Source of the DNA: Deltaproteobacteria bacterium
Lineage (GTDB): Bacteria > Myxococcota_A > Polyangia > Polyangiales > Houyiibacteriaceae
NCBI GenBank assembly: GCA_034670305.1
Contig: JAXMNT010000002.1
Span: 64,001-128,000, forward strand
Direction: 5' to 3'
DNA: 64,000 nucleotides
Within the stretch, counting starts at the first letter, position 1, and every line of letters starts with the position of its first letter. Shown piece after piece: positions 7,083-61,544 of the stretch. Below the pieces are notes generated by a model, which worked only from the letters and a program-made list of their open reading frames with translations, was not told where the DNA came from and did no database searches. The position numbers and the translations under genes were made by a program.

Positions 7083-9233
7083 CTACGGCTCGGCTTCGGC
7101 TTCGGCTTCGGCCTCGGCCTCGGCTTCGGCCTCGGCTTCGGCTTCGGCTTCGGCTTCGGCATCGGCTTCGGCTTCGGCTTCGGCTTCGGCGTCGGCCTCG
7201 GCATCGGCCTCGGCTTCGGCATCGGCCTCGGCATCGGCATCGGCTTCGGCTTCGGCATCGGCTTCGGCATCGGCTTCGGCGTCGGCTTCGGCGTCGGCTT
7301 CCGCGTCCGCTTCCGCTTCCGCTTCCGCTTCCGCTTCCGCGTCCGCGTCCGCTTCCGCTTCCGCTTCCGCGTCCGCTTCCGCTTCGACCTCCGCCGCCGA
7401 CCTCCGACGGAACGCGGTCACGCCTTCGACCAGCTGCCCCACCCGCTCCCACCCACGCCCCCGCACGCCGTACCCGCCGCGCGACACGAACCACTTCGCG
7501 CCGAGGTCATCCAGCGTCTCCACCACGTTCTGGCCGCGTGGGATGTACACCACGCGGTTCGACACATCGCGGTTCCAGAGCAACGCCGGAAACCCGACGT
7601 GCGATGCGAACGCGACGACGTCGCCCGCGCCGATCTCCCGCTCCCGCGCTTCGAGCGCGACCGTGTCCGGGAAGATGCCGCCCTCCATCGACGCCGCGCG
7701 CTGTGGGGCGTCCATCGCCGCGAGTTCCCCCAGCGCCGCCGGCCCGTACATCAAACCCGGTTCGGCGTACACGAGCGTGGCCGCGTGGATGAGCAGGCCC
7801 AGACCAAGCAGCCGCCGCATCCACACCGCGTGAATCTCGTTCGAGAAGCGGCCGAGCAACACCGCGCACAAGATGGCGACCGGCACGATGCCGAAGCGCC
7901 CCCACCACATGACTTCCTTCATCACGAAGACGAGCCCGAAACACGCGACGAGCAGACGCACCACGTGGGCGTGTCCGCGCGCGCGCCACAGACCCGCGAG
8001 TGAGAGCAGCGCGAGCAGCGGCAGGACGAAGGGCAATACGTGCCCATACCCATGGGTCCGTACGTCCGGGTGGTAGAGGCCTTGGACCGGCCAGCCGAAG
8101 GTCTCCTTCAGCCAGATGTCGACGGGCGGCCACGCGACGACGACTTCGATCGGTCCTTCGAACGAGAGCCCAAGCGTCTTCGACTCGAGCGTGAGCGGCC
8201 AGAACGGGTTGCCCTCGTGCAGGTAGTTCCGAACGTAGAGCGGCGCCGCGAACCCGACGACCAGCAACGCGCCGACAAGGAAGGGCATCGCACGTCGCCA
8301 GCGCGACTCCGACCGAAGCGACGGGTCTCGGAGCGTGGTCAGTGCGAGCACGAAGAAGAGCGGCACGATCAACGCCGCGGTGCTCTTGGCGCCGGCGAGC
8401 ATCCCGGTCGCGAGCGCCGCCATCCAGAGATCCTGCAGACCGACGCGTGGGCGCGTGACCAGCGCCACCGCACCGATCATCAGGAACGAGGTGCAGACAT
8501 CGATGTAGGTGCTGCCGAGCTCGAACGCGATGCCGGGCACCGTCGCGATCAGGACCGCGAACCCGAGACGTCGGTCCTTCGCGACCCCCGCGTGGTCCGC
8601 CAGCACCACCAGCGACACGACCAGCATCGGCCACGCGACGAGGTTCGGGAGTTCGATCCACTGCACGCCGCCAAGGGCGACGAAGAACCCAGCGAGCCCC
8701 TCGACGAGCCGCGGGTACCCGTTGATGACTTGCAAGCCGTCCGCCGGAAGTTCGACCCAGTCGAAGCCGCCGTTCTGGACCGTGAAGCAGGTCATCGGAT
8801 CGTGGTACCAGAGGCCATCCCAGGACGTGCTCGGTGCGAGGTAGATGCGGACGAGCGAGAACAGCAGGAGCACCGCTCCGAGACCCAGGGCCGCCAGACT
8901 CAGCGCATCCCGGTTCCGAGCCGCATCCCGAACCACCCGAACCGGGCCAGAGACGAAGTCGCCGACGTCGGATGCGAGTGCACGCAGGGCCTCGCGCGAG
9001 CGAGCGGTCCACCCCACTGCGAGCGCCCCGAGCGTCCACTCCAAACCGAGGAGCCAGCCGGGTTCAAACGCGCCAAGCCAGCCGAGGACGTGGGGCGGCA
9101 CGACCAGCAGGCCGAACACCAAGAGGCAACGATCGAGGGCGCCGAGTGCCCCGGTCCGCCCGAGTCGACGCCCGATCGCACAGGCTCCGAACAGGGCCGG
9201 CAACAGGACGATGAACGGGGCGAGGATGCGCAT
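7083..9233 (-). CDS. Polytopic membrane protein, GT-C/ArnT-PMT-like glycosyltransferase, with a ~100-aa repeat-derived Glu/Asp-Ala tail
   Basis: Many TM segments; WDGLWYH and NGYP motifs after the first helices; no stop until 7083, so the hexamer tract is read in frame. Confidence 0.7.
7087..7390. repeat. Hexamer tract (GGCTTC/GGCATC/CGCTTC)n inside the 3' end of the membrane protein gene
   Basis: Directly visible. Confidence 0.9.
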
Positions 9234-9421
9234 GGCGGAGACGGACGCATTCGTCACCGAACGCGGTCTGGCCAGCCCGAAACGCAGCGGCCGGGTCCCG
9301 GAGTAGCGCAACGTGCGGTTGCGCGCGAGGGCGCCGGAGTATACACGCCTCCGCGAATCGTCCCGTGCAGCCTCGACGCGCCGGGACACCCCCACTTTCT
9401 TCCAAGATTCAGGACCTACCC

Positions 9422-9826
9422 ATGGCCACCCAGCGCACCCTCAGCATCATCAAACCCGACGCCACCGAACGGAACCACGTGGGCGGCATCCTCGCGAAGA
9501 TCGAAGCCGCGGGCTTGAGCATCGTCGAGATGAAGATGATGAAGCTCACCAAAGAGCAGGCCGAAGGGTTCTACGCCGTGCACTCCGAGCGCCCGTTCTT
9601 CGGCGAGCTCGTCGAGTTCATGACCCGCAGCCGCGTGGTCGTGAGCGTGCTCGAAGGCGAAGACGCCGTCGCCAAGTACCGCGAAGTCATGGGTGCCACG
9701 AACCCGAAGGACGCGGCCGAAGGCACGATCCGTCAGGCGTTCGCGAAGGACATCGGCGAGAACAGCGTGCACGGCTCGGACAGCGCCGAGAACGCCGCCA
9801 TCGAGATCAAGTTCTTCTTCGGCTGA
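9422..9826 (+). CDS. ndk: Nucleoside diphosphate kinase
   Basis: [15 protein letters not shown] and NSVHGSDS motifs. Confidence 0.97.
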
Positions 9827-9848
9827 ACCACTTCTTGGCTCGTAGAGG

Positions 9849-9881
9849 CGCCCGTCCCGCAGCGATGCGGCGCGGGCGTTT
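9849..9881 (+). terminator. Putative terminator hairpin after ndk
   Basis: CGCCCG..CCGCA GCGA TGCGG..CGGGCG followed by a short T run. Confidence 0.5.
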
Positions 9882-9887
9882 CCAATT

Positions 9888-10245
9888 CCAATCACCCCAG
9901 ATGCTTCTTCATTCCATCAAGTGGTGAGGCGGCGAGCACGTGCAGGCAGCGACGGGCGCGAATTAGGGCCGCCAGTCGAGCGAAGCGAGCCAGGCCCGTA
10001 GCGGCAAGAAATATTGTTGTCCACATGTGCACCTGCGCAGGCCGGAGGCCGAGCAACTGGTGCACTCCCCAATCGCGCCCCGAGAGCGCCGATAGGAGCG
10101 CCTGGACGCGCGCAGCCGCCAATCACCCCAGATGCTTCTTCATTCCATCAAGTGGTGAGGCGGCGAGCACGTGCAGGCAGCGACGGGCGCGAATTAGGGC
10201 CGCCAGTCGAGCGAAGCGAGCCAGGCCCGTAGCGGCAAGCAATAT
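9888..10245. repeat. Structured A-B-A intergenic repeat (REP/BIME-like)
   Basis: 9888-10008 is identical to 10119-10239 (121 bp); the middle unit B is homologous to the reverse complement of ~14265-14365. Confidence 0.85.
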
Positions 10246-11075
10246 CAGACGCTGACGCCGTGATCTCGAAGCGCTTCGTTGAGCGAGGTCTTGCGATCGG
10301 TGCTCTCTTTGCGGGTTCCGATGATCAGTGCGCAGGGCACGTGGAACTCGCCGGCGGGAAAGGTCTTCGCCCGCATGCCCGGAATCACGACCGACCGCGG
10401 CGGCACGACGCCGCGGTGTTCGACCGGCTCCGACCCGGTCACGTCGACGATGCGGGTGGATGCGGTGAGCACGACGTTCGCACCGATGACCGCTTCGCGG
10501 CAGACCCGCACGCCTTCCACGACGATGGCGCGGGAGCCGACGAACGCTCCGTCTTCGACAATGACCGGCGTCGCACTGGGCGGCTCCAGCACCCCGCCGA
10601 TGCCGACCCCACCCGAGAGGTGCACGCCCGCGCCGATCTGCGCACAGCTGCCGACCGTGGCCCAGGTGTCCACCATCGTTCCAGTCCCGACCCGCGCGCC
10701 GAGGTTCACGTAGCCCGGCATCAGGATCGCACCGGGCTCCAGGTGGCTGCCGTAGCGCGCGGTGCCCGGCGGCACGACGCGCACGCCCTGCTTGGCGAGG
10801 TCGCGCTTGAGCGGGATCTTGTCGTGGAACTCGAACGGCCCACACTCCATCGTCTCCATCTTGCGGACGCCGAAGTAGAGCAGGATCGCCTGCTTCACCC
10901 AGGCGTGCACCGTCCACTCGCCGCCCTCTTCGCCCGGCGGCGTGGCGACGCGCAACGTGCCCACATCGAGCCGCGCCAGGACCTCTTCCACCGCTTCGCG
11001 GTGCGAGGACTTCTCGAGCAACGTCCGGTCTTCGAACGCGGCGGTGATGAGGGACTGAAGTTCCGAATCGGTCAT
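10245..11075 (-). CDS. dapD: 2,3,4,5-tetrahydropyridine-2,6-dicarboxylate N-succinyltransferase
   Basis: DKIPLK, GVRVVPP, TMVDTWATVGSCAQIG and GIGGVLEP motifs. Confidence 0.96.
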   Translation of the reverse strand: MTDSELQSLITAAFEDRTLLEKSSHREAVEEVLARLDVGTLRVATPPGEEGGEWTVHAWVKQAILLYFGVRKMETMECGPFEFHDKIPLKRDLAKQGVRVVPPGTARYGSHLEPGAILMPGYVNLGARVGTGTMVDTWATVGSCAQIGAGVHLSGGVGIGGVLEPPSATPVIVEDGAFVGSRAIVVEGVRVCREAVIGANVVLTASTRIVDVTGSEPVEHRGVVPPRSVVIPGMRAKTFPAGEFHVPCALIIGTRKESTDRKTSLNEALRDHGVSV

Positions 11076-11798: not shown

Positions 11799-12791
11799 TC
11801 AGCTCGGGAGCAGGTCTGCGACTGCTTCGGCTTCGTCGGACAGCTCCTTCGCCGTTGCGTCGATGCGCGCGCGGCTGAACTCGTCGATCTCGAGGCCCTG
11901 GACGATCTCGTACTTGCCGCCCGAACACTTGACCGGGAAGCCGCACATCAGGCCTTCGGGCACGCCGTAACTGCCGTCGCTGCAGACGGCCATGGCCGAC
12001 CAGTCGCCGTCCGGGCTGCCGAGCCACCAGTCGTGCACATGGTCGATCGCCGCGTTCGCCGCCGACGCCGCCGACGACTTGCCGCGCGCGTCGATGATCG
12101 CCTTGCCGCGCTGCTGCACGGTCGGGATGAAGGTCTCTTCGATCCAGGCTTGGTCGCCGACGATCTCCGCGACCGTCTTGCCGTTGAGCTCGGCGTGGAA
12201 GAGGTCCGGGTACTGGGTGGCCGAGTGGTTGCCCCAGATGGCGAGCTTCTTCACTTCCGCGGCGGTGCATCCGAGCTTCGCGGCGGCCTGCGAGAGCGCC
12301 CGGTTCTGGTCGAGACGCACGAGCGCGCTCCACGCGGTCTTCGGAATGCTCGGTGCGTTCTTGCGCGCGATGTAGCAGTTGGTGTTGGCCGGGTTGCCGA
12401 CGACGCACACCTTGATGTCGCGTGAGGCGACCGCGTCGATCGCCTTGCCTTGCGTCGTGAAGATCGGCCCGTTCTCACGGAGCAGATCCTTGCGCAGCAT
12501 GCCGGGTCCGCGCGGCTTGGCGCCGACGAGCACCGCGACGTCGGTGTCCTTGAACCCGAGCATCGGATCGGACTGCGCTTCCATGCCCGCAAGCAGCGGG
12601 AACGCGCAGTCGTCGAGCTCCATCATCACGCCTTCACACGCCTTCATGACTTCGGGCACGGGGATGTCCACCAGCTGAAGGTGAACCGGCTGGTCTTTGC
12701 CCAGCATGTCTCCAGCCGCGATGCGGAAGAGCAGGCTGTATCCAATTTGACCGGCCGCTCCAGTGACGGCGACGCGAACGGGCTTCTTCAT
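11799..12791 (-). CDS. mdh: Malate dehydrogenase (type 2)
   Basis: [22 protein letters not shown] and [12 protein letters not shown] motifs. Confidence 0.97.
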
Positions 12792-18188: not shown

Positions 18189-18203
18189 GAGCGTGCGTTG
18201 GTG

Positions 18204-19601
18204 ATGCGCCTTTCCCTCCGTTCGTGGTTTCCGGGATCTGCACTTCGGTCTCTCGCAACCGCGCTGTGCTGCCTGGCGTGGGGGTGTCCCTCGCCGTCTC
18301 CGACGACCACCACGCCACGGCCTTCCGTGCCCGATGCGGGCGTGGACGCCGGCCCTCGGTATGCGCCACTCCCTGTGCTGCCCCTGCCCGCCGAACCGCC
18401 GCCTCCCGACGACCCAGCCCCGTCCCCGTCCGACCGGCTCGCGCTCGGCGCCGAGACGAGTTGTGTGATGACCCGCGACGGACGGCTGCGCTGTTGGGGG
18501 TCGAACCGGTTCGGGCAGCTCGGTGCGCCCGCCCTCCCCCGCGGCCGCTCCGCGCGTCGGGAGGCACCGGCACTGGTGGCCGGAATCGAAGACGCCCGCG
18601 ATGTATCCGCCGGGACGTGGCATGTGTGCGTGGTGCACGCTGACCGCACGGTCTCGTGTTGGGGGCACGGCGCCTGGGGACAGCTCGGGGACGGCGCCAC
18701 CGAAGATCGCAGCGCGCCAGTGCGCGCGGCGATCGATGGGGTCGTGCAAGTCGCGGCGGGCGAAGGTCACACGTGCGTGCGCCGAGCCGACCGGACCGCC
18801 TGGTGCTGGGGCCACAACCACTTCGGACAACTCGGCGACGGCACCCAAGAAGATCGAACGGCGCCGGTGCAGGTCCCGCTCGAGTCCGTGGTCGAGATCC
18901 GCACCGGCCGCTCGCACACCTGCGCGCGGACCGAAGTCGACGAGGTCTCCGAAGTCTATTGCTGGGGAGAGAACCTCGACGCGCAGCTCGGCGACGGAAC
19001 CCGCTCCGAACCCGCCGGCTTCCGAACGACGGCTGCGAAGGTGGCCGTCGAAGCCGCGCAGCAACTCTCGATCGGAGCGGGCAGTGGATGTGTGCTCGGT
19101 GGGGGCGGCGTCACCTGCTGGGGCCGCAACGACTCCTACCAACTCGGCGCACGCCCGGGCGGCCACGCCGAGAGCGCGATCCTCGAACCGACCCCTATGG
19201 AAGCCACCGCGGACGCGACGCAGGTCGCCGCCGGCGCCCGCCACAGCTGCGTGCTCTTGCGCTCCAGCGAAGAAGACGTGACCGCGATCCGGTGCAGCGG
19301 CCTGAACAACCGCGGCCAGATCGGCGACGGTTCCCGATCGCTCCGTCGCGATCCAACCGAAGTCTCCGGACTCGGCAACGCCACCCACATCGCAGTGGGG
19401 GGCGAACACTCGTGCGCGCTCCGCGCCGCTGGCCCGCTCGTGGTGTGCTGGGGCGACAACCGACGCGGCCAGCTCGGGGACGGCTCGCGGCGGTACCGGA
19501 CCGAACCGGTCCCGGTCGTCGGCAGCGAACGATGGCGACCGGCCGCCGCAACCACGACGCCCCCCGGAGTGGCCGAAGCGGTTCCGCAACCACTTCGATA
19601 A
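18204..19601 (+). CDS. RCC1-repeat lipoprotein
   Basis: Repeated HTC/HSC...CWG.N..GQLGDG motifs; lipobox LAWGC. Confidence 0.9.
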   Translation: MRLSLRSWFPGSALRSLATALCCLAWGCPSPSPTTTTPRPSVPDAGVDAGPRYAPLPVLPLPAEPPPPDDPAPSPSDRLALGAETSCVMTRDGRLRCWGSNRFGQLGAPALPRGRSARREAPALVAGIEDARDVSAGTWHVCVVHADRTVSCWGHGAWGQLGDGATEDRSAPVRAAIDGVVQVAAGEGHTCVRRADRTAWCWGHNHFGQLGDGTQEDRTAPVQVPLESVVEIRTGRSHTCARTEVDEVSEVYCWGENLDAQLGDGTRSEPAGFRTTAAKVAVEAAQQLSIGAGSGCVLGGGGVTCWGRNDSYQLGARPGGHAESAILEPTPMEATADATQVAAGARHSCVLLRSSEEDVTAIRCSGLNNRGQIGDGSRSLRRDPTEVSGLGNATHIAVGGEHSCALRAAGPLVVCWGDNRRGQLGDGSRRYRTEPVPVVGSERWRPAAATTTPPGVAEAVPQPLR

Positions 19602-25492: not shown

Positions 25493-25870
25493 GCCCGTGC
25501 CCGTGCCCGCGTGCCCGTGCCCGTGCCCGTGCCCGTGCCTGCTGGGCGCGACTTTGAACCCCGAAGCAGACGCCGAAGCCGATCCCGAAGCCGATCCCGA
25601 ATCCGAAGCCGAATCCGAAGCCGAATCCGAAGCCGATCCCGAAGCCGATCCCGAAGCCGATCCCGAAGCCGATCCCGAAGCCGATCCCGAAGCCGATCCC
25701 GAAGCCGATCCCGACCCCGTTCCCGAAGCCGATCCCGATCCCGATCCCGAAGCCGAAGCCGAAGTCGAAGCCGAAGCCGAAGCCGATCCTGAAGCCGAAT
25801 CCGAAGCCGAGCCCGAAGCCGAAGCCGAAGCCGAAGCCGAAATCCGATCCCGAAGCCGAAGCCGAATCCG
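25493..25870. repeat. Composite tract (GCCCGT)n plus hexamers and (GCCGATCCCGAA)n dodecamers
   Basis: Directly visible between convergent genes; same two-part architecture as 702-895. Confidence 0.9.
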
Positions 25871-25899
25871 ACCCCCGACCCTGAGTTTTGAAAGGCGAC

Positions 25900-28251
25900 T
25901 CAGTCCGGTGAGGGGGGCGAGGCTGGGAGGGCGCGGGCGGTGACGCGGTAGGCGCCGGTCGTGCCGGGAGCGTAGCTGTTGGCGAAGATGCGGTAGGTGC
26001 CGGTGGTGGGGGCGCGCCAAACGAGGCGGCTGTCGGTGCCGAGCGCGTCGTCGTTGCGCGCGATGCGTTCGTCCTCTGCGTCCACCAAGAGCAGGTAGGT
26101 GTCGAAGTCCTCGCTCGACATCGAGATCACGTAGGTGCGTCCCGCTTCGACCTCGATCGGGTACGGGTCGTAGAAGCTCTCGTCCCGCGCGCGCGCGTCG
26201 CCTTCGGCCAACAGCCCGGTCTCATCCAAGAGGAGCGCGCCGGCGAGCACGTTCTGCAACGTCAGTGTGTACGCACCGAGCCCCTCGTCCTGGGTCGAGA
26301 GGTTGGCCGCGACGAACACGACGCCGGTCGAGGTCGCGGTGTAGACGACACGGCTGGCCGCCTCGTTCAGTGGCGCCCCGGCCTGCAGGACCGTGCCTTC
26401 ATCGGACATCACGAAGGTCGCCGGTTGGAAGGACTCGGCGCCCATCTCGATCAGGTACGTCTCCCCCAGCGTGACCGGCAGCCAGTAGCGGTCCATCGGT
26501 GTGTCGTCTTCCCAGAATCGTGAAGACTCCGCATCGAGCACGCCTTCGACGGCCACTTCCGCCCGCAGCTCCGGATCGGTCAGCGCGGTGACGCTCAAGA
26601 CGTAGGCGCCCGTGCGCGCCTCCTGCTCGGAGGTCGCCACGAGCTCGACCTCGCCGGACGCCTCCGCACGCCATACGATCTGCGCCGTCGATCCGAGGCC
26701 TGGCGCGTCGTCGCTCGCCGCCATCTCCCAACCCCGCGCGCTCCGCAAGACCAGCGCCGGATCGACCGCGCGGCTCCGCATCGTCGCGACGTAGGTGGTG
26801 CCCGCTTCGACCTCCAGCGGGTACGCGTCCAAGTAGCTGCCGGTCTTCGGCAGCCGCTCGTCGGTCGCTTCCAGCAGCCCTTCGATCGGCGCACCGAACC
26901 CGAGCGTGGCCACAACCGGCGCCACCGGTCGCGGTTCCGGCTCCGGCCGCAGAACCACCACGAGCAGCGCGGTCAGGGTCGCGGCGAAGAGCAGCGCGAA
27001 GCCCCACGCCAGGAGCCGCGCACCGTCGCGCGCTCCACCCGGCGCACCGTTGCGCGGCGGCTCCCCCGCCTCTTCGAGCCGCTCGTTGTCGCTCTCCGAG
27101 TCCTCGAGCGCGCGTTTGGGAGACTGCACGCCCCACTCAGAATCGAGGGCATCCAGCGCCTTCACCAACTCGGTGGCGGTCTGAAAACGATCGACCGGCC
27201 TCTTCGCGAGCAACGTGTCGAGGATGCGCTGCAGACCCTCGTGCAGGTCGGGCACGGGCGCGGGCGCCTGAGTGGCGTGGGCCATGAGCTTCTTCAGCGT
27301 CAGTCGTTCCGCGAACGGCGGTGCACCGGTGAGCAAGAAGTAGAACGTGCAGCCGAGCGCGTAGAGATCGCTTCGGGCATCCGCGGCGTTCGGATCGTCG
27401 GCCTGTTCGGGCGCCATGTAGTCGAGGGAACCGACCAGCTCGTCCGCCCAGCGCGGACTGCGCTCGCCGCCCATCACGAGCCGCGCGAGACCGAGGTCGA
27501 CGACCTTCACCGTGCCCTCCCCGCGTCCGTCCTTGCTCGGCGGCTCGGGTGCCAAGAGCAGGTTCGAGGGTTTCACGTCGCGGTGCACGAGGCCGGCCGC
27601 GTGCGCGTGCTGCAGCCCCGCCGCAGCCTGGCGCAGATACGCCGCCGCGCGGGGTGCATCGAGCGGACCTTCGGCCGCCACGAGTTGCTGCAGATCGCCG
27701 CCCGGCACGTACTCCATCACGAGGTAGAGGCGGCCCTCGTGTTCGCTCGCGTGCATCGCCGCGACGACGTTGGGATGGGCGCCGAGCTTCGCGACCGCCT
27801 TGACCTCTTCCCGGAACCGCTCGAGGGCGCGCGGGTCCTCGGCGAGCACGGGGCGCATGACCTTGATGGCCACCTCGCGGTCGAGCACCGCGTGACGGGC
27901 GCAGTAGACCTCCCCCATGCCGCCGTAGCCGAGGAGCCGCTCGACCTCGCATTCGCCGAGTTTGGTGCCCGGGGAGAGGAAGCGCCGCTCGCTCGGCTTG
28001 GCGCCTTTGCGCGCACCTGCCGTCTCGTCCATCGACGCGTCCAGCTGGATGGACTGGGCGGCACCGAAGAGCGACCCGAGCACCTCCAGCTGACCCCGCA
28101 ACTCGTCGTCGAGCGCCATCCCATGTTGCTCGGCCCAGGCTTCCGGGGCCGGTGCGTCGCCGTGTTCGAGCGCCTCGACGTACCCATCCAGAAGCGCCAC
28201 GCGGGCCTCGACACTCGGCTCTTCGCTTTCGGGGCTCACGGAGGCGGCCAC
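25900..28251 (-). CDS. Membrane Hanks-type Ser/Thr kinase with three C-terminal PPC-like extracytoplasmic domains
   Basis: LGYGGMGEVY, VAIK, HRDVKPSN, DLG and MAPE motifs; TM helix LLAWGFALLFAATLTALLVVVL; repeats such as FDTYLLL..NDD..DSRL...G.Y. Confidence 0.93.
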   Translation of the reverse strand: MAASVSPESEEPSVEARVALLDGYVEALEHGDAPAPEAWAEQHGMALDDELRGQLEVLGSLFGAAQSIQLDASMDETAGARKGAKPSERRFLSPGTKLGECEVERLLGYGGMGEVYCARHAVLDREVAIKVMRPVLAEDPRALERFREEVKAVAKLGAHPNVVAAMHASEHEGRLYLVMEYVPGGDLQQLVAAEGPLDAPRAAAYLRQAAAGLQHAHAAGLVHRDVKPSNLLLAPEPPSKDGRGEGTVKVVDLGLARLVMGGERSPRWADELVGSLDYMAPEQADDPNAADARSDLYALGCTFYFLLTGAPPFAERLTLKKLMAHATQAPAPVPDLHEGLQRILDTLLAKRPVDRFQTATELVKALDALDSEWGVQSPKRALEDSESDNERLEEAGEPPRNGAPGGARDGARLLAWGFALLFAATLTALLVVVLRPEPEPRPVAPVVATLGFGAPIEGLLEATDERLPKTGSYLDAYPLEVEAGTTYVATMRSRAVDPALVLRSARGWEMAASDDAPGLGSTAQIVWRAEASGEVELVATSEQEARTGAYVLSVTALTDPELRAEVAVEGVLDAESSRFWEDDTPMDRYWLPVTLGETYLIEMGAESFQPATFVMSDEGTVLQAGAPLNEAASRVVYTATSTGVVFVAANLSTQDEGLGAYTLTLQNVLAGALLLDETGLLAEGDARARDESFYDPYPIEVEAGRTYVISMSSEDFDTYLLLVDAEDERIARNDDALGTDSRLVWRAPTTGTYRIFANSYAPGTTGAYRVTARALPASPPSPD

Positions 28252-28297
28252 GGTATCGCAAACCGGTGTGGTCCGGTCGAAACGTGCAGTCCATCCA

Positions 28298-28912
28298 TCA
28301 GGTCATCGCCGAACGAAGTTGTTTGAGCGCGCGGACCCAGAGTTGCCGGATGGCCGCCTCCGTCTTGTCGAGGCGCGCCGCGATGTCGCGGTGGGAAAGC
28401 CCCTCGAAGTGCCGAAGCTGCAAAACCTCTCGGTACTCGAGCGGAAGGCGGTCGATGGCCTCGAGCAGCTGCATCGCCTCCTGGCGGGTGGCGGCCTGTC
28501 GGCTTGGGGTCGGCTCGTGCGCCGGAAGGCGGGGCTTGTCGCCCCCCGGCCGACCGGTCTCCACCACGCTTCCCGCCACCGCCTTCTCCGCCGCGACGTT
28601 GCGGCGGTCCTGGTGCCAGAAGCGCAGGAGGTTGCGCGCCTCGTTGCGCACGATCGTCACCAGCCACTGCTGCCACTCGCCGGGCGAATCTCCGCGGAAC
28701 TGATCGAAGCGTTCGATCGCGGCGAGCAGACTCTGCTGAACCACATCGGTCACGTCGACCTTGCCCTCGAGCCGACCGGCGAGCACGCTCCGCGCGACCG
28801 CCCTCAGGTACGGCCGCAGCCCGTCCGCCGCCTCCCAGAGCGCATCCCGGTCGCCTTCGCGTGCGCGCACCAGCGCGTCGCGAATCGCCTCGTCTCGCTC
28901 CTCCCGGGTCAT
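28298..28912 (-). CDS. ECF sigma factor of the kinase-associated (planctomycete-like) type
   Basis: KVDVTDVVQQS, FRG..GEWQQWL, TPSRQA and LPLEYREVLQLRHFEGLSHRDIA motifs. Confidence 0.92.
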   Translation of the reverse strand: MTREERDEAIRDALVRAREGDRDALWEAADGLRPYLRAVARSVLAGRLEGKVDVTDVVQQSLLAAIERFDQFRGDSPGEWQQWLVTIVRNEARNLLRFWHQDRRNVAAEKAVAGSVVETGRPGGDKPRLPAHEPTPSRQAATRQEAMQLLEAIDRLPLEYREVLQLRHFEGLSHRDIAARLDKTEAAIRQLWVRALKQLRSAMT

Positions 28913-28949
28913 GCCACGCGAGCATACCGCGCCCCGGCCCCGCGCCCCG

Positions 28950-29082
28950 TCGGCGTCGGCATCGGCGTCGGAGTCGGCTTCGGCTTTCGGCTTCGGCTTC
29001 GGGTGTCGGCTTCGGCATCGGCATCGGATTCGGCTTCGGATTCGGCATCGGCATCGGCATCGGCATCGGCGTCGGCATCGGC
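28950..29082. repeat. Degenerate hexamer tract (GGCATC/GGCTTC)n immediately upstream of the sigma gene
   Basis: Directly visible. Confidence 0.88.
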
Positions 29083-29087
29083 CCCCC

Positions 29088-29123
29088 AAAAGGAACCGCC
29101 CGGACCGCTCACGCGGCCCGGGC
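29088..29123 (-). terminator. Intrinsic terminator after the metacaspase gene
   Basis: Minus strand GCCCGGGCCGC-GTGA-GCGGTCCGGGC-GGTTCCTTTT. Confidence 0.6.
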
Positions 29124-29154
29124 TCGTTTCCCGTTCGTTCGACCTTCGTCGACC

Positions 29155-30993
29155 TCAGCGCGCCGTCACCGTCAGGTCGTAGTTGCCGGTCGTCGCCGGT
29201 GCGTAGGGCTGGATGGCGATGACGTAGGTGCCGCTCGTCGGCGCGGTGAACTCGATGCGGCTCGAGAGGTCGTCCGGCGCGGCGTCGTCGTTCTGCGCCA
29301 CCACCCGGTCGCCCTGACGGAGCGTCATGACCGTGTCGGTGTGGCCGGAGACGCGGGTCTCGAGGAGGTAGCGGCGACCCGCTTCGACCTGGACTTCGTG
29401 TTCGGCGCCGCCGGTGCCGAGCGCGAGGCCGGTCAACGCAAGCACGTGGGTGCCGCCGGTGCTGGGCTGCGCGTTGGTCAGCGGCTGTCGGCGTGCGGCC
29501 AGCGTGTAGGTGCCAAGCGTCTCGGCTGCGTAGGGACGGACCTCGATGGCGTAGGTGCCTGCGGTCGGCACGTCGAACTCGACCCGGCTCGCGAGGTCGT
29601 CGGGCGAGACATCGTCGTTCTCACCGACCACGACGCTGTCGCGAAGCACGCGGACGACCGTGTCGGCCTGGCCCGTGAGCGCCCTCGTCTCGAGGATGTA
29701 GTGACCGGGCGCGAGTTCCAGCGACTGGGTGTCGCCCGCGGCGGTGAGCTGCAATCCCTGGCGTTCGAAGACGAGCTCGGTCGCGGTGGCCGGGGTGTCC
29801 GTCTGGGTCGGCGCGGCATCGAGCTGCGCGACGCGCAGACCGTAGCTGCCCAAGGTGCTCTCCGCGTAGGGACGCACCCGCACTTCGTAGCGGCCGGTGG
29901 TCGGCGCGGTGAACTCGACGCGGCTCGACAGGTCGCCCCGCGAGACGTCGTCGTTCTCGGCGACGACCTGTCCGTTGTGCACGAGTGCGAGCACGGTGTC
30001 GGCGGCGCCACCGAGCGCGTTCGTCTCGATGCGGTACCGCATGCCGGCAGTGAGTTCGATGGGGTGCGTGTTGCCGCTTGGGCTGAGCTGCTGTCCGAGG
30101 AAGCTCGCCACCTCGGTGCCGACCACGGTGGCTTGAGGAGCGACGAACTCGCCGGTGCCTTCGCCGACCTGCATCACGACCATGTCGGGACGTACGCCGG
30201 TGCGCTTGATGTCGATGAACTGGAAGCCGACGTTGCGGCCGGCCGGGTCCGACGCTTCGATGCTCGGAAGCCGGGCGGCCTCGCGGCGGATGAAGACCTC
30301 GATCTCGAGCGCGGTCAGCATGCCATCGCTGCTCTGCCCAAAGACGCCGTTGGCGGCCCCGTCCGCGCGGCCTTCGAGGGCCTGGGCGAGCAACAGACTG
30401 AGGTGGCCGCCCGCCTCCTGTGCGGGCACGGCGCTGGTCAGATCCTCATCGCTCGAGAGGAGGGTCATGCGACCGGCGCGGGCCCCGACGTCGAAGAGGA
30501 ACCCTCCGCTGAAGCAGGCGTCGATGCCGACCAGCGTGAGCCGGCTCTTGGTCCCGTCGAGGGCCGTGGCGAGCTCGTCGTCCGAGAGATCGCCGTCGTA
30601 GAGCGACAACACTTCGTCGAGCTGGTCGCCTTCGTCGCTGCTCTGATCTGCCACCGGCGAACCATGGCCGCTGAAGAAGAAGACCACGTTGTCTCCCTCG
30701 GTCGCTTCACGCTGCACCGTGGCAAGCGCCTGAATCACATTGGCGCGGGTGGCGTCGGCGTTCAGGAGCAAGTGCATCCGCAGCTTCTCGGCGGGCACGT
30801 TGCGAACGAGCGCCCGACCGATGCGTTCCGCGTCCACGTCCGTGCGTGCCAGCGGCGAACTCGGGTAGTCCGCGATGCCGACCAGCACCGCGTGGGTGCG
30901 GCCGGCCATCGGCGCCTCCGCATGCCCAAGGCTCGGGAGAAGAAGGGACGCTGCGATCGTGAGCGCGGCGAGAAGTCGTTGAATCTTGAACAT
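29155..30993 (-). CDS. Secreted caspase-family (peptidase C14) protease with three PPC domains
   Basis: GGAGG RBS; signal peptide MFKIQRLLAALTIAASLLLPSLGHA; catalytic FFFSGHG and IDACFSGG; three repeats DTV..L...VVAENDD..DLSSRVEF. Confidence 0.92.
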   Translation of the reverse strand: MFKIQRLLAALTIAASLLLPSLGHAEAPMAGRTHAVLVGIADYPSSPLARTDVDAERIGRALVRNVPAEKLRMHLLLNADATRANVIQALATVQREATEGDNVVFFFSGHGSPVADQSSDEGDQLDEVLSLYDGDLSDDELATALDGTKSRLTLVGIDACFSGGFLFDVGARAGRMTLLSSDEDLTSAVPAQEAGGHLSLLLAQALEGRADGAANGVFGQSSDGMLTALEIEVFIRREAARLPSIEASDPAGRNVGFQFIDIKRTGVRPDMVVMQVGEGTGEFVAPQATVVGTEVASFLGQQLSPSGNTHPIELTAGMRYRIETNALGGAADTVLALVHNGQVVAENDDVSRGDLSSRVEFTAPTTGRYEVRVRPYAESTLGSYGLRVAQLDAAPTQTDTPATATELVFERQGLQLTAAGDTQSLELAPGHYILETRALTGQADTVVRVLRDSVVVGENDDVSPDDLASRVEFDVPTAGTYAIEVRPYAAETLGTYTLAARRQPLTNAQPSTGGTHVLALTGLALGTGGAEHEVQVEAGRRYLLETRVSGHTDTVMTLRQGDRVVAQNDDAAPDDLSSRIEFTAPTSGTYVIAIQPYAPATTGNYDLTVTAR

Positions 30994-31109
30994 GGTGCAC
31001 CTCCGCGGTTCAGGCGCATGCGCCCGACCGGAAACCCCGCGGTGAAGCGCGCCCTCATCGGCCTTCGCTCCTTCCCGCTCACCACAACGGAAACCGTGGG
31101 GCCGGAGAT

Positions 31110-31137
31110 GTGACGAAAAAACTTCAGTCGGTTCCAC
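31110..31137 (-). promoter_or_regulatory. Candidate ECF-type promoter upstream of the metacaspase
   Basis: Minus strand GGAAC-N15-CGTCA in an AT-richer patch ~120 nt upstream of the ATG. Confidence 0.45.
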
Positions 31138-31157
31138 AACGTGAAAAACCCGAACGG

Positions 31158-31368
31158 TATTGCTGGGGGCACGGCCCCCAAACCCCGTCCCGGTGACACG
31201 GCTTGCTCGCTTCGCTCGGCTTCGCCGCGTCGATATTGTCTGGTCTCTCGCGGGGTTTCTGCGGGCTCGGACGCCCTCGGCTTTCCGAACCCTCGAAAGC
31301 GGCTCCGGACCTGCTCGTCGCTTCGCTCCTGCGCGGGCCCAGAGCCTCCCGCGCGAGAGACTATTGCC
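31158..31368. repeat. REP-like hairpin-rich intergenic element
   Basis: TATTGCTGGGGGCACGGCCCCCA hairpin (similar to 32883-32906) and two TCGCTTCGCTC motifs shared with repeat unit A. Confidence 0.55.
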
Positions 31369-31399
31369 CGGGTTCTTCGCACTGGTGCGTAGGTGCTGG

Positions 31400-31795
31400 C
31401 TACGCGAGGGCGCTCGGCATCTCCGGCGGCGCGAGCGGGCCGCCCGGCAGCCAGCACGCCTCGTCGTCCCACATCAGCGTCTCGCAGCAGGCGTTGAACG
31501 CATCCCAGTCGCACATCCCGTCGCCATCCCCACCGAATCCGTTGCAGTCGGGATCGGGGGTACACGGCCGCGCATCCGCCGCGCCCGCATCGGCAAAGAA
31601 CGCATCCGGGAACACCTCTGGGGCGTCCTGGCCCGCATCGCGCAGCACGAGGGCATCGTCGGTCGGCCCACTGTCCGATCCGGTGGTGGTGATCTCGTGA
31701 CCGCCGTAGCAGGCGCTGCCGCCGACCATCGCCAAGGCAATGGTCACGGTTCGGGCAGCACGGAGGGCACGACGGCGGATTTCATCGGTGGTCAT
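31400..31795 (-). CDS. Small Cys/Trp-rich lipoprotein with C-terminal GGPLAPPEMP motif
   Basis: Basic N-terminus, hydrophobic stretch and GSAC lipobox; DAG linker; six Cys in the C-terminal ~55 aa. Confidence 0.7.
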   Translation of the reverse strand: MTTDEIRRRALRAARTVTIALAMVGGSACYGGHEITTTGSDSGPTDDALVLRDAGQDAPEVFPDAFFADAGAADARPCTPDPDCNGFGGDGDGMCDWDAFNACCETLMWDDEACWLPGGPLAPPEMPSALA

Positions 31796-31906
31796 GGAGC
31801 TGGCTTTCGGGATGGCACACCCTGGCGCGGAACGCGGAAGGCGACTCCCACATTGCGAGCACCATGCCAGCTTGGGCTTCGGGCTGTGATCCTGGACACT
31901 CCGCCC

Positions 31907-32728
31907 ATGACCCTCGTGAGAACCGACCTCAGCCAGTCTCCGCTGCGCCTCGAGTGGGAGCGCACCCTGCAGGCTTTGGAGCGCGGTGTCCCACCAGTGG
32001 CCAGGATCGATCTCAGTCTGTACTCCGATGCGAGCGTGGCGGCGGCTCGGGCCGCGTGGCTCCGGCGCATGGTCGACGAACACCGATCCGCCACCGTCTT
32101 CTCGGCGCTGCTCCCGCAAGCGATCGAAGCGGAGGTTCCGCTCGACCTGCAGGGCATCCTCCTGAAGATGGCGCTCGACGAACTGCATCATGGCGTGCTG
32201 TGCGGCCGCGTCGTCGAAGCGCTCGGCGGTCAGGCCGCTGCCCGCGTCGCGCAGGCGACCGAGTCCATCGCACTGCATGCCGGTCAGACACCGCTCGTTC
32301 GGTTCACCCGGAACTGCCTCTACGCGAGCTGCATCTCGGAGACGGTCAGCGTCTCGCTCACCACCGCGGAGCGGGACGAGACCACGGACCCCTTCGTACG
32401 CTCGGTCCTCGATCAGCTGCTCGGGGACGAGGTCACCCACGCACGCTTCGGATGGGTGCAGCTCGGCCTCGCCCGCCCCGCCCTCTCGCCGGACGACTGG
32501 GCCGCCGTGGAGGCGTACGTGCCGTTCGCACTGGACCACTACTGGAAGCAGTTGCTCGCCAAACGGTCGACGGAACCCAGCACCCAGGGGGACGAGATCG
32601 CACAGCGCAAAGCGCTCGGTCTCGGGTCCAGCGCGTTCTACAACGAGCTCACGCGGGCCACGCTCGAAGAGGTGGTGTTGCCTCAGCTGCAAGCGGCCGG
32701 GTTGGACGCGCGCTGGACGCCCGCGTAG
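31907..32728 (+). CDS. Ferritin-like (diiron) domain protein
   Basis: RMVDEHRS, DELHHG, CISETVS and DEVTHARFGW give the E/ExxH/E/ExxH ligand pattern. Confidence 0.85.
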   Translation: MTLVRTDLSQSPLRLEWERTLQALERGVPPVARIDLSLYSDASVAAARAAWLRRMVDEHRSATVFSALLPQAIEAEVPLDLQGILLKMALDELHHGVLCGRVVEALGGQAAARVAQATESIALHAGQTPLVRFTRNCLYASCISETVSVSLTTAERDETTDPFVRSVLDQLLGDEVTHARFGWVQLGLARPALSPDDWAAVEAYVPFALDHYWKQLLAKRSTEPSTQGDEIAQRKALGLGSSAFYNELTRATLEEVVLPQLQAAGLDARWTPA

Positions 32729-59119: not shown

Positions 59120-60124
59120 TCAGACCGGCGGGGGCTTGGGTGGGCCGACCGCTTGCACACACACCCGCCCCTCCACGACACACACCGCGGCGGCGTCCGA
59201 GGTGCGGACCTCCCCCGCCCCCGTGCAGACCAGGTGATCCACCGCAATAAGCCGGTCGTCGGAGGGTTCCTGGCCGATCTGGCGACGCAGCCACTGACGA
59301 AGCACCTCCCGCCGCGTACCGCCGCTCAGCCGCTTCAGCCGGACCCTCGAGAGCCCCGACCCCGTCTCGACCCGCACCAGCCAGCGACGACCTCGCGCCC
59401 GCCGGGCGCGCGTGGCGTCCGCTGCGTCCGCCGCCAAGGCCGCGAGGTGGTCCTTCGCGCGCGGGTCGATCTGTTCGAGGGTCGACCACAGATCTCGAAT
59501 GCGTGCCCGCTCGAATCGGAGGTCTTCGTTGGAGGGATCTTCGATCCACGCGACGCCACGAGACCGCAGCCAACCCCGCAGTTCCTCGCGCCGGATTTCG
59601 AGCAACGGGCGCACGACCCCATCGCGCCGCCGAAAAGCGACCCCCCGGAGCGCACTGACCCTGCCACCACGCAGCGCTCGGGACAGCACGGTCTCCGCCT
59701 GGTCGTCCAGCGTGTGGCCGGTCGCGACAAAGGTCGCCCCCACCCGCTGCGCGCACTCCTGAAGCGCCCGGTAGCGCAGACGCCGAGCTCGGTCGTGCAG
59801 GTTGCCCCCAGCGCCGAGATCCACCCGCAAGGGCTCGAACCCGAGCCCGAGACTGGCGGCAAACGTGCCCACGAACGCGACCTCGTCGCGCGCTTCGGCA
59901 CGCAGGCCATGGTCGACCGAAGCAACCGTCAGCTGCATCGGACATCGGTGCCGCGCTTCGTGAAGCGCGAGCACGAGGCCGATGCTGTCTCCGCCCCCCG
60001 AACACGCGACCAGGACGTGCGGCGCACCCGCGGTGGCGGGCGTGCCGGCCAAGGGACGCAGGAGCCGGTGGCATTCGATCGTGTGGAGGACCTGCTCCTT
60101 CACGCCCCGGCGCGATCGGCTCAT
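59120..60124 (-). CDS. tilS: tRNA(Ile)-lysidine synthetase
   Basis: ACSGGGDS, DHGLR, GHTLDDQAET, RPLL and EDPSN motifs. Confidence 0.93.
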   Translation of the reverse strand: MSRSRRGVKEQVLHTIECHRLLRPLAGTPATAGAPHVLVACSGGGDSIGLVLALHEARHRCPMQLTVASVDHGLRAEARDEVAFVGTFAASLGLGFEPLRVDLGAGGNLHDRARRLRYRALQECAQRVGATFVATGHTLDDQAETVLSRALRGGRVSALRGVAFRRRDGVVRPLLEIRREELRGWLRSRGVAWIEDPSNEDLRFERARIRDLWSTLEQIDPRAKDHLAALAADAADATRARRARGRRWLVRVETGSGLSRVRLKRLSGGTRREVLRQWLRRQIGQEPSDDRLIAVDHLVCTGAGEVRTSDAAAVCVVEGRVCVQAVGPPKPPPV

Positions 60125-61404
60125 TCGCAGTCGACGAACATCCGGTAGCGGCCCCCGGAGGAGCGCGCGCCGTACAGCACGGTGAAGCTCGGCCGCGCGA
60201 CGATGGAGACGCTGCCGTCGCCGCCGCCGAGCGCGATGGTCGAGCGCACGTACGCGCGGAGCGTGTTGTCGAGCACCCAGCCGCGGGCACCAGGGTCATC
60301 CAGAATCGCGATGTTCGGCCCTTCGCGATCGATGCGCACGTCCTGCACGAGGGCGGCCGGACCGGGTTCGGGTTCCGAGGTGGCACCGTCGGCGTCGAAG
60401 CGCTGCAGCGTCATGCCGATGCCGTCGTCGTACGCGACCACGACCTGGTCCGTATCGCTCGCGAGCGCACCGCGGCCGAGTCCTTCGACGCCCATGGGAC
60501 CCGGCGCCGCCAACGTCGTGGCGCGCCCGACAAAACGGATCCCGTCGCGAATCACCACGGCCAGATCGGAACCGGTGCTGGCGATGTCGAGCCCGGGGTG
60601 CTCCGCGTCGATCGGGAGCACATCCAGCACGATCGGCTCGGCTTCGAGATCCGTCCAGACGATGCGTTCGGGCAACCCAGGACCGGTCATGACGTCCGCC
60701 GCCATCGCCCAACCCGCACCGTGCGGCACGAGCGCGAGGTCGAGCACCTGCCCACCCGCGTCGAACTCGGTGGGCCCTTCCAACGTCTCGAGCGACGACC
60801 CGAGCACCACGTACCGCAACGCGCCGATGTCGGTCTGGGCGACGACGAGCGTGGTGTCCTCTCGCGCCGACGCGGCGAACTTCAGGAACGCGCCACCGCG
60901 CGCGAGACGCATCAGTTCGAACGGGATGTCGGGGACGCCCGACCGGTCGAGTTCGCGGGCGAAGAGCGCGGAGTCGCTGCCGTCGACGAGCAAGATGTGC
61001 TCGCCGGCGCGGGTCACGATCGCCCGGGTGTCGGTGACGCCCGGGGCGGTTGCATCGAAGCTTCGGGGGGGCGCCCCTTCGTCGATGCGGGTGTCGCAGT
61101 CTTGATCGATCCCATCGCACCGTTCGAATGCGCTGGGGTTCACCGACGGGTCGGTGTCGTCGCAGTCGAGGCCACAACCGAGTGGGGGTTCCCCGTCCCC
61201 GTCCCGGTCGATGAAGGGGCTGATCTCGGCGCACAGACCAGCGAGGCACCGAAAGTCCGCGCACATGTCGACTCGGCAGTCTTCGTCGAAGACACACGTG
61301 GGTTCGTCGCTGCGATCGATGTCCCGGTCGTCGGGCGGGCTGCTGCCGCAGCTGTCGAAGGGCACGCCCCAGACGAGGCTCAGCGCAAGCGCGATACGAA
61401 GCAT
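60121..61404 (-). CDS. Secreted protein with putative metal-binding motif
   Basis: DRDGDG..DCDDTDPSVNP...ERCDGIDQDCD; stop overlaps the tilS start. Confidence 0.75.
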   Translation of the reverse strand: MLRIALALSLVWGVPFDSCGSSPPDDRDIDRSDEPTCVFDEDCRVDMCADFRCLAGLCAEISPFIDRDGDGEPPLGCGLDCDDTDPSVNPSAFERCDGIDQDCDTRIDEGAPPRSFDATAPGVTDTRAIVTRAGEHILLVDGSDSALFARELDRSGVPDIPFELMRLARGGAFLKFAASAREDTTLVVAQTDIGALRYVVLGSSLETLEGPTEFDAGGQVLDLALVPHGAGWAMAADVMTGPGLPERIVWTDLEAEPIVLDVLPIDAEHPGLDIASTGSDLAVVIRDGIRFVGRATTLAAPGPMGVEGLGRGALASDTDQVVVAYDDGIGMTLQRFDADGATSEPEPGPAALVQDVRIDREGPNIAILDDPGARGWVLDNTLRAYVRSTIALGGGDGSVSIVARPSFTVLYGARSSGGRYRMFVDCE

Positions 61405-61544
61405 GGGCACGAGGATAGCCGACAATCCGCGGGTGCGTTCGACCGCTTCGTCGGTTGTTCGATCGCGCCCGCGCGCCCACCAATTGCCAACGGCCCCGAC
61501 TCCGAAGAGGCGAGGCCGTTCGCAGTACGGATCGGCTCAGAGAA

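Follow-up and report, generated by a model that had tools for sequence, protein, structure and literature searches.

A conserved myxobacterial gene trio encoding a PPC-type receptor kinase, a sigma factor of the ECF type and a putatively exported caspase-family protease

In the window analysed here, a 64,000-nucleotide stretch of contig JAXMNT010000002.1 (assembly GCA_034670305.1) from a Polyangia (Sandaracinaceae-like) myxobacterium, with a G+C content of about 70%, three genes follow one another head to tail, all on the minus strand, and encode a caspase-family protease, a sigma factor of the extracytoplasmic function (ECF) type and a receptor-type Ser/Thr kinase. The locus raises the question of whether these proteins work together and, if they do, which of them acts on which. 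The original prediction for this DNA had claimed three co-oriented genes and all three were found. We consider the best explanation to be that they form a self-contained signalling-plus-effector module and, with a rough probability of one half, that the kinase acts through the sigma factor on the promoter of the caspase gene, a circuit which would let the cell switch on an exported protease upon a signal from outside. Directly established are the domain make-up, the intact catalytic residues, the conservation of the trio, a conserved motif upstream of the caspase gene and a terminator downstream of it. Positions are those of the window, and features lie on its minus strand unless stated otherwise.

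The gene-neighbourhood survey that had been proposed for the triad uncovered a conserved unit with two gene orders and no fourth gene. The sole genome scan, covering one genome per GTDB species, was anchored on an alignment of the caspase and surveyed sigma-kinase pairs at caspase loci only; it yielded 397 relatives, of which the best 79 loci were kept. Eight of these loci (L001–L008), with 40–67% identity over the whole caspase, constitute the close clade and the other 71 are distant. Searches with tblastn and hidden Markov models placed orthologues of both the sigma factor and the kinase next to the caspase gene in six of the eight close loci (L001–L005 and L007), as against none of the 71 distant ones, and the orthologues in these six loci score at least 324 bits for the sigma factor and at least 468 bits for the kinase. 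Including the window, there are seven trio loci and they all fall within one Myxococcota clade. At L008, one of the two close loci lacking the pair, the contig measures 5.1 kb and opens within the caspase gene; the other, L006, is taken up below. None of the other genes neighbouring the trio in the window recurs at the close loci, and an all-versus-all comparison of the nine neighbourhoods left only the caspase, the sigma factor and the kinase in common. Eight further contigs of equal size recur in the match lists of all three proteins, four of them outside the loci, equal size serving here as a proxy for co-location only.

The distant loci derive mostly from Caulobacterales, Gammaproteobacteria and Planctomycetota and have the PPC repeats on the N-terminal side of the caspase domain. 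Three of them show a weak generic ECF match and one a generic kinase match, and none shows both. At one distant locus (L062, 5813–9931) the caspase is directly followed by a large open reading frame with a kinase domain (88 bits), and three others (L036, L046 and L078) carry two PPC-caspase copies each.

In the window and in L001–L003 the order is caspase, sigma factor, kinase, all in one direction, and in L004, L005 and L007 the caspase gene diverges from the pair (kinase<sigma / caspase>). A quick IQ-TREE analysis of the caspase domain, from which L008 with its match of at most 180 query residues was left out, grouped the eight rows as a single clade (SH-aLRT 100) at the end of a long branch, with the co-directional loci as a subclade and L006 as sister to the trio-bearing L005. 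These tree positions indicate that the trio predates an inversion and that L006 arose by a secondary separation. At L002 only, a lipoprotein-like open reading frame of 172 amino acids (11862–12380), with a signal ending in ...AACGG, lies between the sigma and kinase genes.

The caspase gene (29155..30993) encodes 612 amino acids which, judged from Pfam, the catalytic dyad and a structure model, make up an exported-type C14 protease with three C-terminal PPC repeats. The earlier outer limit of the locus, 31137, is the first, upstream and in-frame GTG of the open reading frame 29155..31137. The ATG at 30993 is the likely start, because GGAGG lies 6 nt upstream of it, a signal-like N-terminus begins there and an identical database protein of 612 residues (P0005) agrees. 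Residues 1–25 (30919..30993, ...SLGHA/EA) read by eye as a signal peptide, a hydrophobic start ending in A-x-A or A-D-Y is seen, again by eye, in 26/26 aligned homologues, and the product is predicted to be exported by the Sec pathway.

The catalytic domain, of the caspase/hemoglobinase fold, occupies residues of about 30–275 (30169..30906). It matches Pfam Peptidase_C14 (PF00656) with 42.7 bits against a cut-off of 21.4, over profile positions 2–139 of 233, and both H110-G111 (in SGHG) and D158-A-C160 (in DACFSGG) are invariant among the aligned homologues (61/61 and 26/26). The structure model has a mean pLDDT of 84.4, and a Foldseek search of the PDB gave as its best match GSU0716 of Geobacter (3bij, E 5e-10), followed by metacaspases of Candida glabrata and yeast, by MALT1 and by the Arabidopsis proteins MC4 and MC9. 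For the metacaspases 7qp0 and 4f6o the target-normalised TM-score is 0.58–0.65, and the alignment with complete fungal metacaspases spans about 270 columns, the Pfam match being confined to the p20 part. An Asp precedes the catalytic Cys (DxC), which we take to be a metacaspase-like trait, and the label caspase-family, metacaspase/orthocaspase-like seems justified by alignment and model. The three PPC beta-sandwich repeats (residues 293–391, 406–503 and 515–611; 29161..30117), each with an NDD..L(S/A)SR motif, match Pfam PPC (PF04151) in three stretches with 66.3 bits against a cut-off of 25.9; among the homologues their number varies from 1 to 4. The claim of a signal-peptide C14 protease with His-Gly and Asp-Ala-Cys motifs and three PPC repeats is thus upheld, with Pfam scores above the cut-offs and an invariant dyad.

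The kinase gene (25900..28251), starting 46 nt after the sigma stop codon, encodes a receptor Hanks-type Ser/Thr kinase of 783 amino acids. Its catalytic domain (residues 102–363; 27163..27948) matches Pkinase with 167.5 bits, and K130, HRD (223–225), N230, DLG (252–254) and PE (281–282) are invariant in 14/14 orthologues. A single transmembrane helix (residues 410–433; 26953..27024) is placed by the structure model and a hydrophobic stretch, as expected from the earlier description of a transmembrane Ser/Thr kinase. Beyond it lies the extracytoplasmic PPC-like array (residues 446–783; 25903..26916), for which three repeats with similar NDD..DSR motifs had been proposed. The three repeats stand, since the structure model shows three beta-sandwiches (456–556, 568–668 and 672–774; pLDDT 80–90) and homology to the caspase array extends over all of them, but the Pfam PPC match, limited to repeat 3, is below the cut-off (21.8 versus 25.9) and the motif is intact in repeat 3 only, repeat 1 having SDD and repeat 2 having lost it. 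Repeat 3 is also the most conserved of the array, with N733-D734-D735 invariant, and 7 of the 14 orthologues give a Pfam PPC match of any kind (E up to 0.01).

Ahead of the catalytic domain the kinase carries a conserved three-helix domain (residues 12–72; 28036..28218) of no Pfam family; a Pfam search with the N-terminal 95 amino acids, at E values up to 10, gave no match. In the Protein Atlas these 95 residues fall into small unnamed clusters which are commonest in Planctomycetota, a lead only. A profile of the helical domain matched 34 representative clusters, 20 of which were scanned: in 16/16 of those with at least 414 amino acids the domain directly precedes Pkinase, and the four shorter ones show no Pkinase match. 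The C-terminal parts of the 16 kinases carry TPR, WD40, DUF4384 or no recognised domain, and TPR and WD40 are sensor types listed for the partner kinases of ECF43 and ECF62 (PMC7826278). The helical domain may be an element that docks the sigma factor or couples the kinase to it.

The sigma gene (28298..28912; 204 amino acids) encodes an ECF (group 4) member of the sigma-70 factors, with matches to Sigma70_r2, r4, r4_2 and Sigma70_ECF and to TIGR02937 (90.8 versus 42.9). Its best NCBIfam model is the planctomycete subfamily TIGR02984, below the cut-off (158.6 versus 183.75), and PADLOC gave no match for it. No open reading frame and no family match for an anti-sigma factor was found between or beside the three genes, in agreement with the earlier description of an ECF sigma lacking an adjacent anti-sigma. 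This absence, with a one-helix Hanks kinase at the +1 position, is a hallmark of kinase-coupled ECF groups (PMC13147305, PMC8999054, PMC7826278) and argues for a sigma factor under kinase control. Such control is known in the ECF43 pairs EcfP/PknT of Vibrio parahaemolyticus and EcfK/PknS of Xanthomonas citri, which share with the trio the anti-sigma-less ECF factor and the one-helix Hanks kinase at +1, and in which the kinase ectodomain is needed for signalling (PMC13147305, PMC8999054). They differ from the trio in that their kinases carry TPR ectodomains and not PPC repeats, and in that their described outputs are polymyxin resistance and type VI secretion and not, as the candidate here, an exported caspase.

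A further difference concerns the switch itself. In ECF43 uncharged residues (consensus QTTA or STTA) stand in place of the acidic DAED/DxxD motif of region sigma-2.2, and a Thr at this site is phosphorylated (PMC13147305, PMC8999054, PMC7826278). The window sigma factor has KVDVTDVVQQ at the corresponding position, the motif K-V-[D/E]-x-[S/A/T]-D-V-V-Q-Q occurs in 7/7 loci, and across 46 clusters of sigma orthologues it reads K-V-[D42/E4]-x-[S32/A13/T1]-D46-V-V-Q-Q. The acidic DxxD, with Asp or Glu first and Asp fourth, is therefore kept in 46/46, and the position of Thr55 of the window is Ser or Thr in 33/46 and Ala in 13/46, including L001–L003. An ECF43-type (EcfP) switch was excluded on these grounds, since the acidic positions are kept throughout and the Thr is not conserved. 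Of the proposal that a kinase activates this sigma factor, the setting (no anti-sigma, a one-helix Hanks kinase at +1) stands and the EcfP-type mechanism does not. EcfK is phosphorylated in the linker between sigma-2 and sigma-4 as well (PMC13147305). In the equivalent linker of the trio sigma factor T135 is Ser or Thr in 46/46 orthologues and S137 is Ser in 46/46, and these two residues appear to be the best candidate phosphosites.

Whether the caspase gene could be the target of the pair depends on how the three genes are transcribed. Upstream of it, on the same strand, lies a bipartite ECF-type promoter-like motif, CGTCACA-N12-CGGTTTCC (31089..31115), with a T-rich tract on its 5' side and 95 nt from the ATG. 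Summarised as CGTCACA-N11-13-CGGTTTCC, and in its general form [C/T]GTCACA-N11-13-C[G/C]GT[T/G]TCC, it is present in 8/8 loci holding the region (the window and L001–L007), always oriented towards the caspase gene, its end lying 44–109 nt ahead of the start codon at each of the seven loci with an assigned start. The exact motif occurs once in the 64-kb window and in 0/100 shuffled sequences, and a degenerate version was missing from the remaining 72 loci. The sequence TGTCACA is recorded as the -35 element of ECF41 and ECF103, and GTC is part of the predicted ECF43 -35; GTTTCCAC is a recorded -10 in ECF231 and GTTTCC(AC) is recorded as the -10 of other ECF groups (PMC7826278). The orientation assumed here is suggested by the constant position relative to the caspase gene and by the A/T-rich tract 5' of the motif. 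The caspase leader (30994–31088) shows 78% identity among five loci (the window and L001–L004) and contains a GCGGG...CCCGC hairpin; this hairpin found no covariation support (covariation term +4.64, 1/41 pairs compensatory), and Rfam gave no match on 28200–31300 at E values up to 1.

Downstream, 32 nt after the caspase stop codon, an intrinsic-terminator-like hairpin (29088..29123) has 11 pairs, 10 of them G-C, and a U-rich tail. Its fold z value is -4.2 in the window, and equivalents with GUUUU in L001–L003 (z -3.3 to -4.4) extend it to 4/4 co-directional loci. The call rests on this conservation, a terminator scan having found 2 against 2.3 expected. Between the terminator and the sigma promoter there is a hexanucleotide tandem repeat of 22 copies (28950..29082, TCGGCA on the plus strand, itself of no assigned strand) which occurs in the window only, is absent from the related loci, and creates spurious proline- and arginine-rich open reading frames. 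The sigma gene is preceded by a housekeeping-type -10-like box, TATGCT (28921..28926), 8 nt before its ATG, and TATCCT, TATGCT or TATCTT stands 8–10 nt before the sigma start in 6/7 loci (the window, L001–L004 and L007, the reading at L005 being ambiguous), with no Shine-Dalgarno sequence, which suggests a leaderless or near-leaderless message from a housekeeping promoter. A sigma-70 promoter scan of 25700–31300 returned 0 sites. The sigma and kinase genes constitute one unit, probably read from the housekeeping-type promoter just before the sigma start, and the pair looks constitutively expressed. The caspase gene, with its own conserved motif upstream and a terminator after its stop codon, is best read as a separate and separately controlled transcription unit, an output.

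These elements can be assembled into the following circuit. A ligand would bind the PPC array of the kinase and activate it; the kinase would act on the anti-sigma-less ECF sigma factor, more probably at the linker residues T135 and S137 than at an EcfP-type sigma-2.2 site, with the sigma factor perhaps docked by the N-terminal helical domain; the active sigma factor would bring RNA polymerase to CGTCACA-N11-13-CGGTTTCC before the separately transcribed caspase gene; and the caspase product, leaving by the Sec pathway, would act beyond the cytoplasm on substrates bound by its own PPC repeats. The phosphorylation partners, the promoter read by the sigma factor, the ligand and the substrates form the inferred part of this model.

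How far the ligand can be guessed depends on the relationship of the two PPC arrays. Kinase ectodomain and caspase array align collinearly over three repeats, by BLASTP with 27% identity over 319 amino acids (E 1e-13) and by hhalign with 99.2% probability (E 8.9e-20, 289 columns). By BLASTP the ectodomain reaches 56 bits against the caspase of its own locus and a median of 38 bits against 27 close caspases; for 36 distant PPC-caspases the median is 79, and for 20 PPC-only or other proteins it is 87. Compared by sequence the arrays are homologous, yet they are not each other's closest relatives, and the likeness of their NDD motifs reflects a family signature and no special kinship, since the kinase array scores higher against unrelated arrays. 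The idea that protease and kinase share a ligand because their arrays are alike is therefore not implied by their sequences, and nothing in the analysis supports the homotypic contact that had been offered as its alternative. A complex prediction run without controls, for the kinase ectodomain (446–783, 14 rows) and the mature caspase (27–612, 26 rows), gave 0.00 against a mark of 0.32 and speaks neither for nor against binding. A sequence search of both arrays against PDB chains returned a single match at chance level (E 0.03). In other phyla a PPC array of the kinase type is fused to the same caspase family, a weak hint, of the Rosetta-stone kind, that the two are functionally linked. In secreted proteases, PPC domains serve to bind proteins or collagen as substrates (PMC3327674, PMC8799719), which makes a substrate-sensing role for the kinase ectodomain reasonable.

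If this role is accepted, a more specific form of the circuit can be proposed, although only tentatively and with the odds against it. The PPC receptor kinase would sense a protein or polymer outside the cell, from prey or matrix for instance, and would activate its private ECF sigma factor outside the EcfP route, either by phosphorylation of the linker or by release from the N-terminal helical domain acting as a docking or anti-sigma element, so deploying the secreted PPC-caspase. Such a substrate-sensing circuit would be of a new type.

Several observations weigh against the circuit from kinase to caspase promoter. At L006 (Sandaracinaceae, 8892–10953) the caspase gene and its motif are present with full flanks, and neither sigma factor nor kinase lies within 9 kb; the two regulators may sit in another part of that genome or may have been lost. 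With the acidic sigma-2.2 motif kept in all 46 orthologue clusters, the sigma factor may bind core polymerase unphosphorylated. The reverse complement of the motif, GGAAAC-N17-GACG, also resembles an ECF promoter and points away from the caspase gene. The motif was not found before the sigma gene in the co-directional loci (the window and L001–L003), so the autoregulation usual among ECF factors seems to be missing; with the terminator parting caspase from sigma factor, this leaves the feedback circuit of the original prediction doubtful. Finally, the kinase ectodomain resembles the PPC array of its neighbour less than it resembles distant or unrelated ones.

Some of these observations would be accounted for if the sigma-kinase pair regulated other genes, with the caspase gene merely linked to it and the motif read by a different sigma factor or regulator. 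The lack of a motif before the sigma gene, the caspase standing alone at L006 and the kept acidic sigma-2.2 motif all agree with this, as does a contig of size 1130680 that appears in the kinase and sigma match lists and not in that of the caspase, size being a proxy only. We nevertheless regard it as unlikely, given that the trio was kept through an inversion and in unrelated contexts with no other gene shared, and that the motif is single in the 64-kb window.

A somewhat more doubtful alternative would place the caspase upstream of the kinase: it would cut the kinase ectodomain, or cut or release the ligand, and so start or stop signalling in the manner of site-1 proteases acting on anti-sigma factors. 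Caspase and ectodomain face the same side of the membrane, their genes are conserved as neighbours and both proteins carry homologous PPC arrays. A specialised promoter-like motif and a terminator of its own, however, are more in keeping with a regulated output than with a constitutive input, and L006 keeps caspase and motif with no pair nearby. As a feedback arm, this activity could be compatible with the circuit from kinase to caspase promoter.

A role in defence, included among the functions first proposed, has become very improbable. It would require an intracellular caspase-based cell-death or anti-phage system comparable to the EACC-caspase and ECF systems or to kinase-based defences, and caspase-ECF neighbourhoods have been described for conflict systems (EACC1/EACC2; Kaur et al. 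2021, PMC8195603), which share with the trio a caspase domain and an ECF sigma factor in one neighbourhood. Those systems consist of cytoplasmic multidomain proteins with effector-associated modules, in contrast to the caspase of the trio, which is predicted to be exported; signal-like N-termini recur in all 26 homologues, and secreted proteases typically carry PPC repeats. The EACC1-type NCBIfam model NF047832 matches the caspase weakly, with 42.1 bits, far under the cut-off of 140, and no EACC module was found in the protein or its neighbours. PADLOC gave generic matches, with a caspase model at 52.6 bits and with the kinase models PD-T4-6 and mad6, but these are limited to the catalytic domains. 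The surroundings, moreover, are housekeeping genes (LepA, pseudouridine synthase, MiaB-like, FtsH, FolP, GlmM, BamA, RecJ, Mdh and RlmN). That the adjacency is mere descent among close relatives, devoid of functional meaning, is equally improbable in spite of the small number of trio loci and their restriction to one clade, given caspases differing by up to about 50% in sequence, flanks not conserved at all, and a gene order rearranged with adjacency kept.

The component types of the trio are known and their combination is one not described before. The literature searched yielded no description of a unit joining a PPC-ectodomain receptor kinase, its ECF sigma factor and an exported PPC-caspase, in agreement with the earlier statement that no characterised example of the architecture is known, and none of the motif upstream of the caspase gene. 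Further kinase-associated sigma factors are ECF59–62, ECF217, ECF267 and ECF283, which like the trio have a kinase in a conserved neighbourhood and no anti-sigma (PMC7826278) and which keep a DAED-like motif with Ser or Thr in or near it (PMC8999054). They are described as 100% Planctomycetes or Actinobacteria, unlike the trio, and none is experimentally characterised; the part of the PMC7826278 supplement available to us mentions neither caspase nor PPC for the kinase-associated groups. Operons of metacaspase and sigma-70 genes are already known from myxobacteria (Asplund-Samuelsson et al. 2012, PMC3501461), with four operons holding 4/5 metacaspases in Myxococcus xanthus and others in Anaeromyxobacter, Haliangium and Sorangium; for these the available part of the paper mentions no kinase, PPC or promoter, their function was not tested, and the likeness to the trio is one of description only. 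PPC-caspase fusions, an architecture listed in the dataset of the same paper, occur in Caulobacterales, Gammaproteobacteria and Planctomycetota, Brevundimonas being one example, and share the caspase signature [LI]D[SA]CFSGGF and the PPC repeats; these differ in having PPC N-terminal, in the absence of the sigma-plus-kinase pair from all 71 distant loci and in the long branch that separates them from the trio clade. Judged by regulatory logic the closest analogy is with SigI/RsgI of Clostridium thermocellum, where a membrane sensor with an outer substrate-binding module acts on an alternative sigma factor for secreted enzymes (PMC6852018, PMC4711584); in contrast to the trio, the sensor there is an anti-sigma released by proteolysis, the substrates are polysaccharides and there is no homology.

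Most discussion of caspase homologues in bacteria treats them as intracellular proteases of cell death or defence. A caspase that is predicted to be exported and is linked to a sensor and a sigma factor of its own points instead to a regulated task outside the cell, for instance in feeding, predation or the turnover of matrix and, should the substrate-sensing circuit prove true, this would be the first caspase homologue employed as an extracellular enzyme that a kinase-sigma relay regulates. For kinase-coupled ECF sigma factors the mechanism is known from two proteobacterial cases only, and the acidic sigma-2.2 motif kept in the trio clade provides a test case for kinase control of a sigma factor expected to bind core polymerase already. 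A small module, with clear candidates for both promoter and phosphosites, makes the hypothesis directly testable.

Three further genes of the window may be recorded. Divergent from the caspase promoter region lies a plus-strand gene (31160–32728) with a weak match to AurF-like di-iron oxygenases (22.9 bits versus a cut-off of 29.6), which is not kept beside the trio in other loci. Unrelated to the module are a plus-strand gene (18189–19601) whose product is a beta-propeller protein of RCC1 repeats (WD40_RLD, 261 bits) and a minus-strand gene (60124–61536) for a protein with a MopE-type metal-binding motif.

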